Part shown: in pieces, positions 44,398 to 64,000 of the stretch
How positions within the stretch are numbered: position 1 is the first letter of the stretch
Layout: each line of letters begins with the position of its first letter
Origin: Thermodesulfobacteriota bacterium
GTDB lineage: Bacteria > Desulfobacterota > Desulfarculia > JACQYL01
Direction of reading: 5' to 3'
Assembly: GCA_963675595.2 (NCBI GenBank)
Contig: CAXXLZ010000002.1
Span: forward strand, 4,666,253-4,730,252
DNA length: 64,000 bases
Program-made: the position numbers and the translations under genes
Notes under the pieces: model-generated
The model's input: the letters and a program-made list of their open reading frames with translations, nothing else
What the model was told of the DNA's origin: nothing
The model's database searches: none

Positions 44398-44473
44398 GTG
44401 TTATCCTTGGCTAAACCCGCAGCTTTGGGACTCTTGCCGGCGTGTGGGTTCAAAGGATGATAGACCTTCCTTT

Positions 44474-44585
44474 CCACTTCCCCTCGATGATCCTTGGAGC
44501 GTCTCCGGGGTCGGACATGACATACACCCATGCGAATTCGTCCCCAGCTTCGGTTCGGACCCGCACGATCCGACGCTCAAATAGA
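44474..44585. repeat. 112-bp perfect direct repeat, copy A
   Basis: Identical to 46370-46481 (CCACTTCCCCTCG...GCTCAAATAGA). Confidence 0.92.
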
Positions 44586-44612
44586 TTGGAAGAGTCCCGA
44601 AGTACACATAGT

Positions 44613-46345: not shown

Positions 46346-47242
46346 TCACGTGTTCTTAGATATTCCACGCCACTTCCCCTCGATGATCCTTGGAGCGTCT
46401 CCGGGGTCGGACATGACATACACCCATGCGAATTCGTCCCCAGCTTCGGTTCGGACCCGCACGATCCGACGCTCAAATAGAGAGGATTCACACCCATATC
46501 CGCGGAAGCCCTCGATTCCATCGAGGAAAGCGAGCAAGTCCCCGATGCGCTTCACTTGAACGAGCTCTCCGTGAACGATTTCTTCAGAAGATGAACTCAT
46601 GGACATTGCCGGGAATCCGCCCAGATCGTAGAGACGCCCGGGCGTCACTCCGTTGAGGCGTTTTTCAGGCTCTCCGAAGGTCTCCAGGAGTGCTCCTCTG
46701 GATTCACCGGACATCAGAGTCCCATAGCAGAATATCCGGTCGATCAGGTAAGGCGTATTCGCTCCCTTTTCCGCCGTCTTGTGGAGGTGTTCGATGACGC
46801 CGTGAGCATTCAATCCCCTTCTTACAATTTGGACATAATCGGGCGACGGTTTTACAAATCCCCCCCGGGAGTGAATGTCTCGGACCATATAGGTGAAGGC
46901 GTCCAACCTACCGCCGTCTTCCAGAAGACAAGTGATTTCGATCCGGGTATAAATGCCCGGGAATCCTTCTTTCCGGTCGAGCGTTGCCCGCCCATCGGGC
47001 CGAATCTCGAAGAGCACACCCGGCACCACTTGCCCGATCTCCTCGCGGATATTTAGAACACCACCGCCGCGGGTCCGGGAGAGATAATTGTATACAGGAA
47101 AAAAATCCGGCAAGAAGGCCTTCCCTACCACACCCTCGATGGGGAACTCCGTTTTTTTCCGAGCACACCACCTTTTCAGATCATCGAAGTTCAGATTGGA
47201 ACCATATCCAAAATATAGATTGTCCATCCGGCCTCCCTCCAA
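46346..47242 (-). CDS. Tandem gamma-glutamylcyclotransferase (AIG2-like) domain protein
   Basis: YFGYGSNL...LDRKEG and FCYGTL...VHGEL...LDGIEG...AWVY. Confidence 0.88.
   Translation of the reverse strand: MEGGRMDNLYFGYGSNLNFDDLKRWCARKKTEFPIEGVVGKAFLPDFFPVYNYLSRTRGGGVLNIREEIGQVVPGVLFEIRPDGRATLDRKEGFPGIYTRIEITCLLEDGGRLDAFTYMVRDIHSRGGFVKPSPDYVQIVRRGLNAHGVIEHLHKTAEKGANTPYLIDRIFCYGTLMSGESRGALLETFGEPEKRLNGVTPGRLYDLGGFPAMSMSSSSEEIVHGELVQVKRIGDLLAFLDGIEGFRGYGCESSLFERRIVRVRTEAGDEFAWVYVMSDPGDAPRIIEGKWRGISKNT
46370..46481. repeat. 112-bp perfect direct repeat, copy B (3' end of the GGCT gene)
   Basis: Identical to 44474-44585. Confidence 0.92.
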
Positions 47243-57057: not shown

Positions 57058-58045
57058 ATCGCGCCTCAGCAGCAGGTGATGGTCTTCTTGCATAGATGAT
57101 ATATATGTTGAGCTACTTTTAGTAGTTATTGCTTTAGCATTCCAATGTAATTATTTTGTAGGAAGAGGGGCGATTCGTATATTCAAGGTATATTTTCCAA
57201 AGTTCCTGTAAATATAATGGATATATCATATAGAGTATCTCTATCTTTTATACGATATGAGATACTCATTGATTTCTATACGTTCTTCGCCATAGGCGGA
57301 CAGCACTAAAATTAGTGAAACTAATGATATAAAAGGCTTTAGGTTAAATACCATCTTCCCGTCTCGCTTTACCTACTGCAGTCTTGCATCTTAGGATTGG
57401 GAATGGGCGGAACAGCAAAATTGAAGCTGTTCAATCACGGCACACGACGCCGAAGATGATACGGCGTCCATAGGTGCGTTTTGAATATAGGCCCCCCCCG
57501 GGGGCTCCTTTGGGGGGTGGGGTGACACTATACCCCCCCTTGCCTCGTTTAGCACTTCATAATCCACATCTGTCAAACCATCGCTTTCATGGCGAGCCCT
57601 GTTCGTTCGATGGGATTGAGGTCCGGTGAGTAGGGGGTAAAAAGAAAGGCTCCCATCCACGCCGCTGGATGGACCGTTTTCGATGCCGCTCGGCGTTGTC
57701 CGGAACCTGAACCTCGAAAAGCTTATCCAAGACCTGTCGGAAACCTGTGGAGTTGAGGCTTCCGAAATCCGGGGGCCACAAGGAAGTGCTTGGGGCACGC
57801 ACCCTTTGCCCTGGGGCCAAGTTTGATTTGGATGCGTTTCGGTTGGGTCCGGGGTCGGCCCTGGACCTTTTGCATAGTCCGAGAAGAAGCGCCGCCGCCG
57901 CTTTCGAGTCCGAAGACCTACTTGCCGCGGCGGGCTTGGGGGTTATTTGTCCGGCCACGGGCCGGCGCAGGTGTGAGGGTCTGGTCAACACCTGTGCACA
58001 GGAGCGCAATCCTTGAACGGCGCTCTTCGGGCGAAGGGTGGTGAA

Positions 58046-58170
58046 CTCAGCAGACGCGCGCCGAGGTTGTTGTTGCGGTTGTCCGGCGTGTTGTTGTTCC
58101 GATTCGCCGAACGGCAGTTCTTCGCGTTGTTGTTCCAGCTGCCGCCGCGTTTCACCCGGAGCGAGCCTGA
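58046..58170 (-). repeat. DGR template repeat (TR)
   Basis: 125 bp, AAC-rich, ungapped match to the VR. 20 of 22 mismatches fall at TR adenines. Confidence 0.93.
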
Positions 58171-58337
58171 TCGTCCCTCACACCAAATCCTTGCCGTAAA
58201 AGAAATCCTGTCTCATCCTCCAACGGAGCGTGAAAATTCGTATGTGCATGGATTCACGAATTCGGTTGTAAATTCAGCCTCGCTTCGCTCTGCTTTCTCT
58301 TCCCCCTATCCTCACACCGGGGACGGCTGCCCGTTCC

Positions 58338-58408
58338 GGGCCGGGTTCTTCACTCATGGGCTTCGCCGCATGAGCAGGCTCCGCCCTCTTCGCTTCGAAC
58401 CCAGGCCC
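58338..58408 (-). other. Hairpin/cruciform downstream of the DGR VR
   Basis: CTCATG-C-GGC-GAA-GCC-CATGAG inside an outer GGGCCTGGGTTC/GAACCCGGCCC stem, between the target stop codon and the TR. Confidence 0.55.
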
Positions 58409-58443
58409 TCCCCGGCAAGGAAAACCGCAAAGGGTAAAAGGGA

Positions 58444-60546
58444 TCAGGGGTAAGACCTCAGCAGACGCGCGCCGAGGCCGTCGAAGCTGTTGACCGGCGT
58501 GTTGCCGCTGCGATCCGCCGAACGGCAGTACCTCGCGATGCAGATCCAGCCGCCGCCGCGAAGCACCCGGAGCGAGCCTGAGGACGGACCCGTGGGATCC
58601 GTTACGGACCCACTCGGATAGTCGCCATACCAGTCTTGGCACCACTCCCACACGTTCCCGTGCATATCATGCAATCCCCAGGCGTTGGCCGACAGGCTGC
58701 CCGTCCGAACCGTCATTTTCCGGTATTCACCTTTTGAACAGCCCGACAACGGGTAGTTTCCGTTATAATTCGCCTCGTCGGTGGATAGACAGTCTCCGAA
58801 AGCGAACGGGGTGGTGGTGCCGGCCCGCGCCGCATACTCCCATTCCGCTTCCGTGGGGAGCCGATACCGATCCCCTCCCGCCAACCGATTGAGCTTCTGA
58901 ATGAACGACTGACAGTCGTTCCAGGAAATGTTCTCCACGGGGCAGTCGTCTCCACAATTCTTGAAATTGGACGGATTGCTCCCCATGACGGCCTTCCACT
59001 GCCCCTGCGTGACCTCCGTGGTCTGAAGGTAGTATCCTTGGGTGAGCGTCACCTGGTGCTGCGTCTCATTGCTGCTTCGGCCCGGCTCGTTGCTCGGGCT
59101 TCCCATGGTAAACGTGCCGGGAGGAACATACGCGAATTTGAACTCCTCTCCGGCAATCCGATCCACAAGGGTTTTCCCCGTATTTCCCGCGGACGGCACC
59201 GGCTTGGGGGGAACGGGCGTCAACGACGCCCGCACGTTGGCTTCTTCTCCCACACGCACGCTGACGGTCTCTTCCCAATCCCGGTGTTCCTCCAGCTTCA
59301 ACGCCACCTTGTGGCTCCCGGCGGCCACCTCGCTCATGGCTCCGGGAGTCGTCCCCACATACGCGCCGTCCAGGTACCAGCGGGCACCGGACGGATCACT
59401 GGTCACACGCAGGGTGCCCGTGGTGGGAACGGGTTCCAGCAGCAAGGTCACCCTGGTCTCCTTGCCCGCCTGAATCCAGACGCTTTCCTTGCCGTACTTG
59501 TAACCTTCGAGGTTCGCCAGTACTTCCACTCTGCCGGGACTCAAATCCGAAAGCGAAACGGGCGACGCGCCCACCCGGCCGCCGTTTACATAAACCAGCG
59601 CTCCCCGGGGGCTCGTTTCCACGTACAGGGAACCGGTGAGCGGTTCGGACGCCGACGGCGGGGCGGGCTGCGTGATCACCGCGCTCCCTCCCGCCATGAA
59701 CACGAAGTCCCCCTGGTCCAGCTTCGGGTCTCGAATCTTTCCGTACTGGGGGTGTTGGGCCGGGTTGTATTCCGGCACCTTGTTCTTGAGGAACAGCCCC
59801 AATTCTTCACCCGTGATGTAACCGTCGGGGATGGGTTCCGGCTCCCTGCCTTCCAGCAGGTTCAGGAACGCCTGCTTGAATACGCTGTGGTCGGGCACCG
59901 GTTCATTGGCTCGACCGGCCGTGATGAACTGCCGCACCGGATACTTGACGTTGTCCGACACCGTTTGAGGAACCACTCGCTCCCGCAGGTTCAGAATGGA
60001 CCCCGAAAAGCAGCTGTCGAACATGAACAGCGCGTGCTTGGCGTTCATGATGCGGGCCTCGGTCACCATGGACTGCATGTCCACGCTCGCCAGCCGAAAA
60101 CCCACCGGGTCTCTTTCCGGGGCCGGGGCGTCCACCATGACCAGGAAGCCCAGTTCCTCATCGGTGGACAGTTTCTGCGTGTACCCGTGCCCGGCATAGT
60201 AGAACAGCAGGCGGTTGTCGGGCTCCGCACCGAATTTCGTGGAAAATTCGCTCAAGGCCGTGTTGAAGGCGCTTTTGGTCAGGTCCTTCTTCAGGGTGAC
60301 GCTGAAACCGTTCCGTTTCAAGGCCGCGGCCACGTCGTCGGCGTCCTGCAAAGCTCCCGGCAACGGGTCCCAGCCTTTGGTGTAGCGGCCGTTGCCGATG
60401 ACCAGGGCGTAGGAATCTTCGTACAGTCGGAAAGGTTCGCCCTGTTGCGGGCGAAGAGTCACGCCGATGCCGCGTTCGGCGCCCGAAACCTGAAACGCCG
60501 CCAACGTCGCCAACAAAAGGAGATACAAGGGCAGGGATCGCTTCAT
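58444..60546 (-). CDS. DGR target: signal peptide, caspase-like (peptidase C14) domain, 2x PEGA, FGE-sulfatase (C-type lectin fold) domain
   Basis: YALVIGN...YYAGHG...FDSCFSG dyad. PEGA units ETSPRGALVYVNG and TSDPSGARWYLDG. FTMGS, RLPTEAEWEYAAR and DMHGNVWEWC. Confidence 0.92.
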   Translation of the reverse strand: MKRSLPLYLLLLATLAAFQVSGAERGIGVTLRPQQGEPFRLYEDSYALVIGNGRYTKGWDPLPGALQDADDVAAALKRNGFSVTLKKDLTKSAFNTALSEFSTKFGAEPDNRLLFYYAGHGYTQKLSTDEELGFLVMVDAPAPERDPVGFRLASVDMQSMVTEARIMNAKHALFMFDSCFSGSILNLRERVVPQTVSDNVKYPVRQFITAGRANEPVPDHSVFKQAFLNLLEGREPEPIPDGYITGEELGLFLKNKVPEYNPAQHPQYGKIRDPKLDQGDFVFMAGGSAVITQPAPPSASEPLTGSLYVETSPRGALVYVNGGRVGASPVSLSDLSPGRVEVLANLEGYKYGKESVWIQAGKETRVTLLLEPVPTTGTLRVTSDPSGARWYLDGAYVGTTPGAMSEVAAGSHKVALKLEEHRDWEETVSVRVGEEANVRASLTPVPPKPVPSAGNTGKTLVDRIAGEEFKFAYVPPGTFTMGSPSNEPGRSSNETQHQVTLTQGYYLQTTEVTQGQWKAVMGSNPSNFKNCGDDCPVENISWNDCQSFIQKLNRLAGGDRYRLPTEAEWEYAARAGTTTPFAFGDCLSTDEANYNGNYPLSGCSKGEYRKMTVRTGSLSANAWGLHDMHGNVWEWCQDWYGDYPSGSVTDPTGPSSGSLRVLRGGGWICIARYCRSADRSGNTPVNSFDGLGARLLRSYP
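58457..58581 (-). repeat. DGR variable repeat (VR) in the target 3' end
   Basis: Encodes SGSLRVLRGGGWICIARYCRSADRSGNTPVNSFDGLGARLL. Confidence 0.93.
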
Positions 60547-60777: not shown

Positions 60778-61110
60778 TTAAGCCGAACCGAGACCCCCTT
60801 TTCCCGAAAGATTCTTCCACGTGGGTTCGGTCGACAGCACGTCGGAAACGATCCCCGAGGGGGCCGTTTCAACTTCGGCCAAACGGACCGGCAGGAGGGC
60901 GAGCCAACAAAGGGTGACACGGCTTCGGATCCGCTCGTCTTTTCGGTGATACACGGGGCGGAGTTCAAGGTTCGACTTGAGTGTCCGGAAGGCCCGTTCC
61001 ACCTCGACGAGCTGCTTGTAACCCAGGGCAATCTCTTCAGAGGTGAGGGTGTCGTCGCCGCAGGTGAGCACGGAGTTGCCGTCGACCTTCTCCTCAGCCG
61101 TTACTTTCAG
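60778..61110 (-). pseudogene. IS1634-family transposase C-terminal remnant
   Basis: EEKVDGNSVL...IALGYKQLVEVERAFRTLKSNLELRPVYHRKDERIRS, homologous to the C-terminus of 61652-63150. Confidence 0.8.
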
Positions 61111-61226
61111 GCTCACCACAGCCCGGCAACCGTAAAGCCGTCCTTTACCTGATTCTGCGCCACCAGGATGGTGTCGAGCACCTCCTTCGACGGCTCGACA
61201 AACCGGTTTCGAAGCGCGTCCACCAA

Positions 61227-61235
61227 GGGGAGCCA
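61227..61235 (+). repeat. attR core
   Basis: GGGGAGCCA. The upstream GTCC is in the same register as in the tRNA (GTCCtgcccGGGGAGCCA versus GTCCaccaaGGGGAGCCA). Confidence 0.72.
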
Positions 61236-61274
61236 AAAAAATCCTGGGCGAACCCATGCCCGGTTCGGTTTACA

Positions 61275-61313
61275 GGAAGCCCCATCGGATACCCCGGTGG
61301 GGCTTCCGTTTTT
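61275..61313 (+). terminator. Rho-independent terminator, probably the original tRNA-Asn terminator
   Basis: GGAAGCCCCATCGG-ATACC-CCGGTGGGGCTTCC-GTTTTT, about 40 bp after attR. Confidence 0.75.
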
Positions 61314-61651
61314 AGGGGCCGGTACTTCTGCAGGTACCGCCCTGCGAGAGCACCTCCCTCCCGGCCCTCGAAGCTCGACCCTGGAAATCGTGATGGTGTA
61401 TTGGTCGAGCTCGTCCATTGTAGGGGCGGGCCGTAGCGACCGCCCAGAAGACGGCCTTCGACTCTTCACATTGAGCAGGCATCGGCCCTAATCAAACTCA
61501 TCTTTGACAGTTGGAGGGTGAAAAAGTGGGCCTCTCCCGCCTAACTTACCGAAATGATTAGGCTGGCCTTTTTCCGAGGCTCCAAACGTAGTGCCAATAT
61601 GTCCGATTTTTTCCTTGACTCCGCCGACCTGTATTCCGTACAATTTGTTTC

Positions 61652-63250
61652 ATGTTTGCACGCGTCAAAAAGGTCAAAAGCGGCGGATCCGAGCATGAAT
61701 ATCTTCAGATCGTGGAGAACTATCGCCAGGATAAGAAGGTAAAACAGAAAGTTATATGTACACTGGGTCGTCTCGACAAGCTCCGTGAATCGGGTGCCTT
61801 GGACGGGGTTCTTACCAGTCTCGCCAAGTTCTCCACCCGGAATCAAGTCATCAATCTTTATAAGGAAGGTAGTGTCAAGGCAGACTGGGCCAAGTCCTGG
61901 GGAACCGTTCTGGTGATCGAGAAACTCTGGAAGACCTTGGGGCTCGATGTGGTACTCCGATCTCTCGCTTCTCGCTCCGATTATCGCTTCGATCTGGAGC
62001 GCGCGGTCTTTGCCTGTGTCTGCCAACGCTTGGTCCGTCCGGGATCCGATCTCGCCGCGAGCCGTTGGATTCAGAACGTCCACGGTGAAGGCTTTGACGA
62101 CCTGGAACTTCAGCACCTCTATCGATCCATGGATTTCCTGGCCGAATATCAGCCCGAAATCGAGAAGGAACTTTTCCGTCGGGGGCGCGACCTCTTCGAT
62201 TACGGGGTGGATCTCGTTTTCTTCGACACCACCTCGGTCTACTTCGAGGGCCGGGGGCCTGCCGAGTTGGCTCGGTACGGGTTCTCCAAGGACCATCGTC
62301 CAGACCGCAAACAGGTGTTGGTGGGTGTGGTCATGTCCCGAAAAGGATATCCCCTTTCCTGTCAGTTCTGGGAAGGGAACACGGCGGACGTCACCACCAT
62401 CAAACGCATCATCGCCCTGGTCAAGCGTCGGTTCTCCCTGAACAACGTGGTCCTGGTCTCGGACCGCGGCATGGTCGGCGTCGACAATCTGGTGGAACTG
62501 GAGCGTGCCGGTATCGACTACATCGTGGGCATCCCCATGCGCCGTTACCAGGATGTCCGAGGCCAAGTGGTGGACACTCCGGGCTACTACCAAGCGCTCA
62601 CTCCCACCTTGTGGTTCAAGGAGATTCATCTGAACGGATGCCGTTACGTCCTCTGTTACAACCAAGACCAAGCGGCCAAAGACGAGGCCACCCGATCGGC
62701 CCTTGTGGAAAAACTGAAAACCACCCTGAAAAAACAGGGGCCCCAGTCTCTGGTGGGAAACAAGGGCTTCAGGAAATTCATCAAGCTCGACCGGGAAACC
62801 GTGCGCATCGATCCCGCCAAGGTCAAGGACGACGCCCGCTTCGACGGCAAGTATGTTCTCCTCACCAGTACCGACATTCCCGCCGATGAAGTCGCGGTCA
62901 CCTACAAACGCCTGTGGCAGGTGGAAAGAGCCTTCCGGGACCTCAAATCGGCCCTGGAAGTCAGGCCCGTGTTCCACCAACGGTGTCAACGCGTTCAAGG
63001 TCACATCTTCTGCAATTTCCTGGCCCTATACCTGAAGATCGCGCTGCAGAAACAGCTCAAGACCAAAGAAATCGACATCCCCTGGGACCAAGTTCTCCTG
63101 GACCTCGAAGCCTTCAAAGCCATCCATCTACAGGTCACGGAGAAGTCCTACTGTCAAGCCCCCAGTTTTTGGTCCAGGAGTTATGAGAGTTTTATCATGA
63201 CTCGCGGTTTTCCATCCCCGGCCCTTGGGGCCTCGGCGAAGCCGAGCTGA
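61652..63250 (+). mobile_element. IS1634-family (IS4-like DDE) transposase, 3' end interrupted by IS3 at ~63152
   Basis: FFDTTSVYFEG, GFSKDHRPDRKQ, VSDRGM and YKRLWQVERAFRDLK. Upstream TTGACT-N18-TACAAT. The last ~32 codons derive from IS3 sequence. Confidence 0.88.
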
Positions 63251-64000
63251 GCGAGGCGGAGTCGAGGCCCCAAGGGCTCGCCGCGAACTGGGCCGGGGTC
63301 ATGTAATTCAATGCACTGTGCGGTCTTTCCTCGTTATAGGCTTTCCGCCATTTGGCGGCCAGAGTCTGCGCTTCCTTGATGTTGTTGAAAATTTCCATGT
63401 TCAAGAATTCATCCCGAAAACGGCTGTTGAAACTTTCCACGTACCCGTTCTGCCAAGGGGCTCCCGGCTCGACGAAAAGGGTTCCCACTCCCAGGTCTTT
63501 CAGCCAGTTTCTCACCTTTTGGGCTATAAATTCGGGACCGTTATCCGATCGAATGCCCGTTGGAACTCCCCGCTCGCCCATCAATCGGCTCAGCTCGTTC
63601 AAAACGTCTTCACCCGTAATGGAGCGGTTGATCCTCAGGGCCAGGTTTTCCCGAGTAAACTCGTCGACAATGGCCAAGCACTTGAACTGACGGCCGTCGA
63701 CCAAGCGGTCATGAATGAAATCCAACGTCCAGACATCATTTGCAAAAGCCGCCTTACGCTTGTTGCACGCATTGGCATCAACTCCCAGGAAGCGTTTCTT
63801 CTTGGCTTTTCGAGGTACCTTGAATCCTTCCTCTTTCCAAAGTCTATGAATTCGCTTGTAGTTTACCGCCCACCCCGCATCACGCAGCAGCCGAGTGATC
63901 CTACGGCATCCAAAACGGGGATGTTCTCCAACCAACCGGTGAAGAGCCTTGATCAGTTCCACCTCATCGTCCCGTTCCTTCGGCTCATAACGTTGGGTGG
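63152..64000 (-). mobile_element. IS3-family element (orfB DDE transposase at 63195-63962+; continues past the window)
   Basis: WTLDF, IVDEFTRE, RSDNGPEF, PWQNGYVESFN and RPHSAL. Terminal TGTCAAGCCCCCAGTTTTTGGTCCA at 63152. Confidence 0.9.

Follow-up and report, generated by a model that had tools for sequence, protein, structure and literature searches.

Do diversity-generating retroelement (DGR) loci that keep a template repeat (TR) and a variable repeat (VR) but have no reverse transcriptase (RT) persist as fossils, or are they served in trans? The question was left open in the literature (excerpts of PMC4372165, PMC7517822, and PMC10907252, on which the comparisons below also draw), and it was raised by a cassette located on the minus strand of the window (the whole 64,000-nt stretch of DNA analysed here, C2:4666253-4730252 of a 6.79-Mb genome that was 98% complete), in which a target gene ending in a VR was followed by a TR and its spacer. 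The first-pass annotation had offered an RT elsewhere or freezing after RT loss; intact RT, Avd, and HRDC genes elsewhere in the genome made the former possible. The cassette was a copy of a complete DGR (here called the master) shortened by simple deletion; the reading to which we incline, if only slightly, is that this duplicate, having lost HRDC–avd–RT in one 1.77-kb deletion, borrows the RT and Avd of the master for infrequent rewriting of its VR.

The TR (58046..58170; this and all following features on the minus strand unless stated) and the VR (58457..58581, residue 656 of the target onward, at the 3' end of the CLec-fold target) aligned without gaps over 125 nt, as had been annotated, and displayed 22 mismatches, of which 20 fell at TR adenines (34 adenines in the TR; binomial p 6e-10): the VR had been rewritten in the past in an adenine-specific manner. 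The local TR could encode ~10^18 protein variants, and 273 nt (~270 bp in the annotation) separated the target stop at 58444 from the TR. The two mismatches at other letters, at TR positions 71 and 93 (positions counted 0-based throughout), had been taken as a hint of drift; this did not hold for position 71, where the mismatch was common to four of the six VRs of the genome, including the VR beside the intact RT, and only that at position 93 was specific to the window. A systematic RT error at position 71 was considered and rejected: in six of six loci with the same TR codon, the best-matching VR kept that codon.

The master (target–HRDC–avd–RT–TR–spacer) was located 1.47 Mb from the cassette on the same chromosome. 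The genome gave 21 RVT_1 matches, of which one was of DGR type: a 336-aa RT (C2:3249446-3248436) carrying GxxxSQ and YxDD motifs, preceded by Avd and HRDC genes and followed by a TR. RT, Avd (above the NCBIfam cut-off of NF033474), and HRDC of the master were all intact, and Avd and HRDC were each present in a single copy in the genome; this intact enzyme set excluded a dead relic for lack of any RT. Just past the amidase gene of the master lay a group II intron RT (C2:3245.9-3247.4 kb), one of seven identical copies.

Alignment of the window to the master gave two blocks, 92% identical over 512 nt and 87% identical over 475 nt, which abutted at 58222, and ~1.77 kb (HRDC, avd, and RT) was absent from the window. 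The join had left a 23-codon fusion stub (58178..58249) composed of nine HRDC start codons (58249-58223) in frame with the last 14 RT codons (58222-58181; 12 of 14 residues identical to the master), the chance of an in-frame join being one in three; the stubs differed from the master at 2 of 83 bases, and the deletion left the RNA surroundings of the TR intact. The annotated absence of RT and avd genes thus stood as far as intact ones were concerned (no intact DGR-type RT, no avd), but the RT tail and the HRDC start had been missed; having no intact RT, the cassette was not classed as an autonomous DGR. Behind the spacer, the amidase gene downstream of the master was represented by a frameshifted 3' remnant (57712..57880, plus strand), with 21 private changes in 141 columns (15%), and this piece indicated that the copy was made as DNA. 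The ~50-codon frame noted by the first-pass annotation exists at 57875-57723 and was rejected as a gene, being antisense to the frameshifted amidase remnant. An RT remnant at 57.4-57.9 kb, which that annotation would have read as deletion instead of trans use, was not found there; the RT stub was located 5' and not 3' of the TR, and the either/or itself was mistaken: simple deletion did occur, and trans use is still compatible with it. The amidase remnant was followed by a 130-nt element (57585-57712) with three further copies on C2 (84-88%).

If the cassette does borrow the enzymes of the master, transcription of its TR-spacer RNA would probably start in the HRDC promoter region or arise by read-through; the RNA would fold as in the Bordetella element, with an upstream:spacer duplex and an Avd-binding hairpin; the RT-Avd of the master would reverse-transcribe it; and the complementary DNA would replace the VR, with integration helped by the GAA hairpins. 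In E. coli, the Bordetella RT-Avd can use a TR-RNA transcribed separately from its own promoter (excerpt of PMC12875486). The local TR was identical to that of the master at 121 of 125 positions, and these four changes compared with the 21 private changes of the neighbouring remnant at Fisher p 0.001. The VR of the window had two mismatches at non-adenine positions against its own TR and four against the master TR.

The predicted RNA pairings that this reading calls on were all kept. The predicted upstream strand of an upstream:spacer duplex (58175..58184; cPRT-Stop-like) formed 10 of 10 Watson-Crick pairs with 57979-57970, a pairing as strong being found in 0 of 200 shuffles; the same duplex in the master had one mismatch and did not pass the shuffle test (p 0.18). 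Among surveyed relatives, this pairing reached p<=0.05 in 31 of the 60 loci (out of 61) that had enough flank for the test, including four of the five RT-less ones. Predicted for the spacer RNA (57881..58045) were a hairpin (58025-58002), the duplex strand 57979-57970, a stem-loop (57965-57951) followed by adenines, and the terminal GC-rich hairpin (57935-57891) that had been annotated after the TR. The spacer differed from that of the master at 7 of 165 positions; over the 66 of 165 positions covered by the hand-drawn helices used for this check, no proposed pair was broken and the window paired better than the master at two. The VR 3' flank (58253..58456), common to the master and three remote targets, had 11 of 204 mismatches to the master and contained two GAA-loop hairpins (58374-58353 and 58341-58329) where one had been annotated.

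These structures resembled the DGR RNA of Bordetella phage BPP-1, in which pairing between the spacer and a segment of ~20 nt upstream of the TR is required, a stem-loop plus adenines follows the pairing, and a hairpin is located just 3' of the TR (excerpt of 10.1101/2023.10.23.563531); the present locus differed in its gene order (avd–RT–TR, with the upstream strand at the end of the RT gene) and in that its pairing is predicted. The VR hairpins had 3-nt GAA loops at 83-128 nt from the VR, whereas the known type has 4-nt loops at 4-34 nt (excerpt of PMC3240598).

A number of observations weigh against such borrowing. The minimum-energy fold of the single strand was without the predicted duplex, and a promoter scan found no sigma-70-like promoter. 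Assembled contigs, which drop rare variants, showed no VR variant: run X1 gave one unbroken contig with the reference VR allele, and X4 gave the same allele over 103 of 125 VR bases (X1 and X2 are runs of one sample, possibly the source of the assembly, and X4 is a second sample of the same study; X2, without VR cover, and X3, with a hole, bear on the matter in neither direction, and reads matched at 80% likeness came overwhelmingly from paralogs and other organisms). The VR kept C71 against G71 in both TRs. Among 33 intact TR-VR pairs (loci with RT and VR both detected, one VR each), 25 had no non-adenine mismatch in positions 20-99 and five had at least two. So few differences in the stubs fit a recent deletion, and the conservation of TR and spacer could be older than the loss of the RT or result from gene conversion. 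The target was oriented head-on to the replication fork, 1.6 Mb from the origin inferred by GC skew, and a head-on, origin-distant target is poorly placed in the E. coli system (excerpt of PMC12875486). Finally, at positions 9-10 the window TR had two adenines replaced by the VR's own letters, where 32 of 33 intact TRs have AA: a mutagenised codon had moved from VR to TR, which is back-transfer and not template use, and the letters shared at positions 8-10 were for this reason rejected as proof of trans use.

The strongest competitor, to which we give an appreciable though minority share of belief, is that the cassette is frozen: a second, complete DGR would have stood here until a recent deletion reduced it, its own RT would have last written the VR, and TR and spacer would be intact through youth or through gene conversion with the master. 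The near-identity of the stubs to the master favors this account, as do C71 and A93, which are still not overwritten, the single VR allele in two samples, and the decay of sister copies (one at 885.7 kb without TR and one at 903.2 kb that is a VR-spacer chimera in a broken gene); RT-less TRs also occurred in 5 of 58 assessable relatives, two of the five draft genomes having no RT-like match. Against it, the TR had no private point change over positions 11-124 beside a remnant that had accumulated 15%, all predicted RNA pairings were kept, an RT with a 97% matching template was present in the same genome, and position 71 was mismatched also at the intact master locus, so that it is no mark of RT loss.

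It is improbable that the window gene is an ordinary remote target, rewritten from the master TR with the local TR as inert baggage. Remote targeting is common (excerpt of PMC5758913), and the 3' flank recurs in this genome at three remote targets that have no TR, yet the VR of the window lacked the master markers C8 and G101, the latter just 24 nt from the 3' end. A mis-joined assembly or minority structural variant, with HRDC–avd–RT still at the locus, is most improbable, for although RT-positive and RT-negative structural variants coexist in Thiohalocapsa (excerpt of PMC10907252) and the contig spanning the junction had 29-30 bases on its short side, just under the 31-base rule for a bridge, that 122-nt contig covered 58130-58251 with 0 differences in X1 and X2 at depths of 8.7 and 7, like those of neighbouring unique pieces, and in both of these runs the HRDC–avd–RT stretch assembled as a single unbranched contig of 1893 nt that carried the master alleles, at depths of 10.6 and 11.6.

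Six VRs in the genome matched the TR: those of the window and the master and those at C2 885.7 kb, 903.2 kb, 950.4 kb, and 952.8 kb. The window, master, and 885.7-kb targets were of C14-PEGA-CLec type, and those at 950 and 952 kb were of PKD-CLec type. The master-private G101 was present in the master VR and in 0 of the 5 others. The 885.7-kb copy had lost its TR and its VR had drifted; at this locus (L017, C2:881.6-885.8 kb), two C14-CLec genes were arranged in tandem, the second carrying the drifted VR and the first having an N-terminal half 87% identical at the DNA level to the window target with an unrelated, non-VR tip, which suggests domain shuffling among paralogs. At C2:902.8-903.5 kb (L018), a broken CLec gene had a fully mutagenised VR joined directly to the TR's spacer; this VR had 0 non-adenine mismatches against the window TR except at positions 9-10, and L018 is likely a VR-TR recombination product. 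At C2:950.3-954.9 kb (L019), a pair of PKD-CLec remote targets stood in tandem, both having the same VR flank. The element was duplicated and trimmed several times, and among the trimmed copies only that in the window kept its template. Record 10 of run X2 was a related TR of other source in the same sample, with C at position 71 and T at position 89, states seen in VRs of this genome.

A TR pattern search of GTDB genomes gave 61 loci, of which 53 had an RT match in the locus; three were left out for having <300 nt upstream (L062, L074, and L079), and the five of 58 that were RT-less in the locus were L059, L072, L080, L092, and L096. Their draft genomes held, elsewhere, a full-length DGR-like RT in one case, a partial RT in one, a weak 30% match in one, and none in two. 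In L059, from an archaeon, a C14-CLec gene was joined directly to its TR and spacer; this is the unmutated equivalent of L018. L082 kept the last third of the RT alone. In L092 and L096, an open reading frame occupied the RT place between HRDC and TR; it resembles what we take to be a Y1/REP-associated transposase. In L080, the RT-less TR came after two targets and an HRDC stub; neither VR had a non-adenine mismatch in positions 20-99, and the draft genome gave no RT match. A second pair of complete and RT-less loci, in genome G042, was considered and found unsupported, the TR of its RT matching the RT-less TR at only 78% over 50 nt. For dating of the deletion, no close relative was found: searching 40 related genomes turned up two distant DGRs and, in G002, where no RT match was obtained, a single TR-less target that shared the flank. 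Five metagenome loci were all distant and all had an RT, and viral contigs gave no match.

The target gene (58444..60546) encoded 700 aa, with a predicted Sec-type signal peptide (about residues 1-23, 60478..60546), a C14 caspase-like peptidase domain, two PEGA repeats, and a C-terminal CLec-fold domain of the formylglycine-generating enzyme (FGE) type; the peptidase, the HG/DSC dyad, the two PEGA repeats, and the CLec domain had all been named at first pass, and Pfam matches and residues bore them out. The signal peptide fared as a prediction from inspection and hydropathy: its region reached an 11-residue hydropathy of 2.38, and a value of at least 2.0 was found in 106 of the 120 best homologs. 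The Peptidase_C14 match (PF00656) scored 63.9 bits against a cut-off of 21.4, its best stretch (residues 46-193, 59968..60411) containing H120 and C179 within the catalytic-dyad motifs H120-G121 and D177-S178-C179. These motifs were kept in 116 of the 120 best homologs; across the 73 of those 120 taken into the alignment, C179 was invariant and H120 was present in at least 90%. MALT1 and a metacaspase were also matched, weakly, at the sequence level.

The FGE-sulfatase/CLec domain (residues 473-697, 58456..59130) was identified with Pfam, and the best sequence match of the target in PDB was Treponema TvpA (2Y3C, E 1e-25). C14 and FGE domains were present in most of the 120 listed homologs, and the architecture is therefore widespread; two full-length homologs, found among 400 genomes of the phylum, had no TR, RT, Avd, or HRDC within 1.5 kb. 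In the present VR allele (58530-58550), a Cys stood four residues before a fixed Cys, with spacing as in true FGEs, where such a Cys-x4-Cys is presumably the active-site pair; the first Cys was a variable codon unique to the window allele (0 of 5 other VRs), so that the fixed Cys-x4-Cys of an FGE was not present, and the spacing is probably a chance product of mutagenesis. The product is predicted from its sequence to be an exported cysteine protease, and its variable tip would recruit the protease to a foreign surface or cluster it there. Orthocaspases cleave after positively charged residues (excerpt of PMC6426788).

The target gene lay at the margin of a region that carried genes for a serine recombinase, type I restriction-modification, GmrSD, McrBC, and WYL proteins, and it was adjoined by transposases. 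The island-like part (6684-57093) contained, besides the serine recombinase, the restriction-modification system, GmrSD, and McrBC, a family A polymerase, a CARF-type sigma-54 activator, two WYL regulators, ARPP-1, a UDG-like protein, and a UvrD plus PD-(D/E)XK pair; a 130-nt direct repeat, 95% identical, was located at 44461-44590 and 46357-46486, 1896 nt apart. Directly upstream of the target (60778-64000) lay truncated and whole DDE transposases and an integrase-core (rve) transposase, and the contig terminates where the window does. These neighbours suggest a possible conflict role for the target.

Both the RT-less arrangement and the caspase-CLec target type are already known in print. 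An incomplete DGR without RT has been described (excerpt of PMC4372165), as have FGE domains on 33 prokaryotic metacaspases, with frequent N-terminal helices (excerpt of PMC3501461), and protease-fused DGR targets are listed as b4 and b5 (excerpt of PMC5758913). Three systems came closest: (i) orthocaspase-CLec variable proteins (excerpt of PMC7517822), with all3226 of Nostoc sp. PCC 7120 as a dispersed paralog having remnant TR-VR homology, no RT nearby, and intact DGRs in the genome; we infer from accession numbering that all3226 is itself a C14-CLec entry, and Table S3 of that paper lists C14-CLec variable proteins, the remote one AFW94847.1 (Anabaena sp. 90) being putatively non-cytoplasmic; (ii) Thiohalocapsa PB-PSB1, with one complete locus, duplicated, transposon-shaped loci without RT or TR, modular N-termini, and trans activity proposed for DGR 4 and 5 (excerpt of PMC10907252); and (iii) the Treponema denticola TvpA type (architecture C), with HRDC and avd, an FGE-sulfatase/CLec target, and remote targets >100 kb away (excerpt of PMC5758913). 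Compared to all3226, the scar here was legible to the base, the TR was 97% identical to that of the master, the target had PEGA repeats and a predicted N-terminal signal peptide, and the host, judged by its nearest named homologs, was not a cyanobacterium. In Thiohalocapsa, the RT was replaced by MITE (miniature inverted-repeat transposable element) arrays or interrupted, the targets were vWA, TIR, CHAT, and NACHT proteins, and population variation was measured (same excerpt), whereas the present case is a clean deletion with predicted exported C14 or PKD targets, known from a genome and contigs. Unlike the TvpA type, the window kept only stubs of HRDC and RT and had its own TR. A PEGA-linked secreted caspase target, an in-frame HRDC-RT scar, and VR-to-TR back-transfer were not found described in searches of an open-access library, though the target tables of PMC5758913 and PMC10907252 and other supplements may hold such cases.

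Surveys anchored on the RT overlook loci of this kind. This genome, which combines a single RT with six VRs and two templates distinguishable at marker positions 8 and 101, makes the question of fossil or trans service directly testable, and reads could reveal from which template each target was written. We tentatively raise, as a possibility on the doubtful side, that the cassette is a maintained non-autonomous DGR: selection would have kept a second template RNA, one RT-Avd would serve two templates and six VRs, and templates would be open to backward editing from the targets they serve, of which the two lost adenines are an example, and this may freeze a successful codon.

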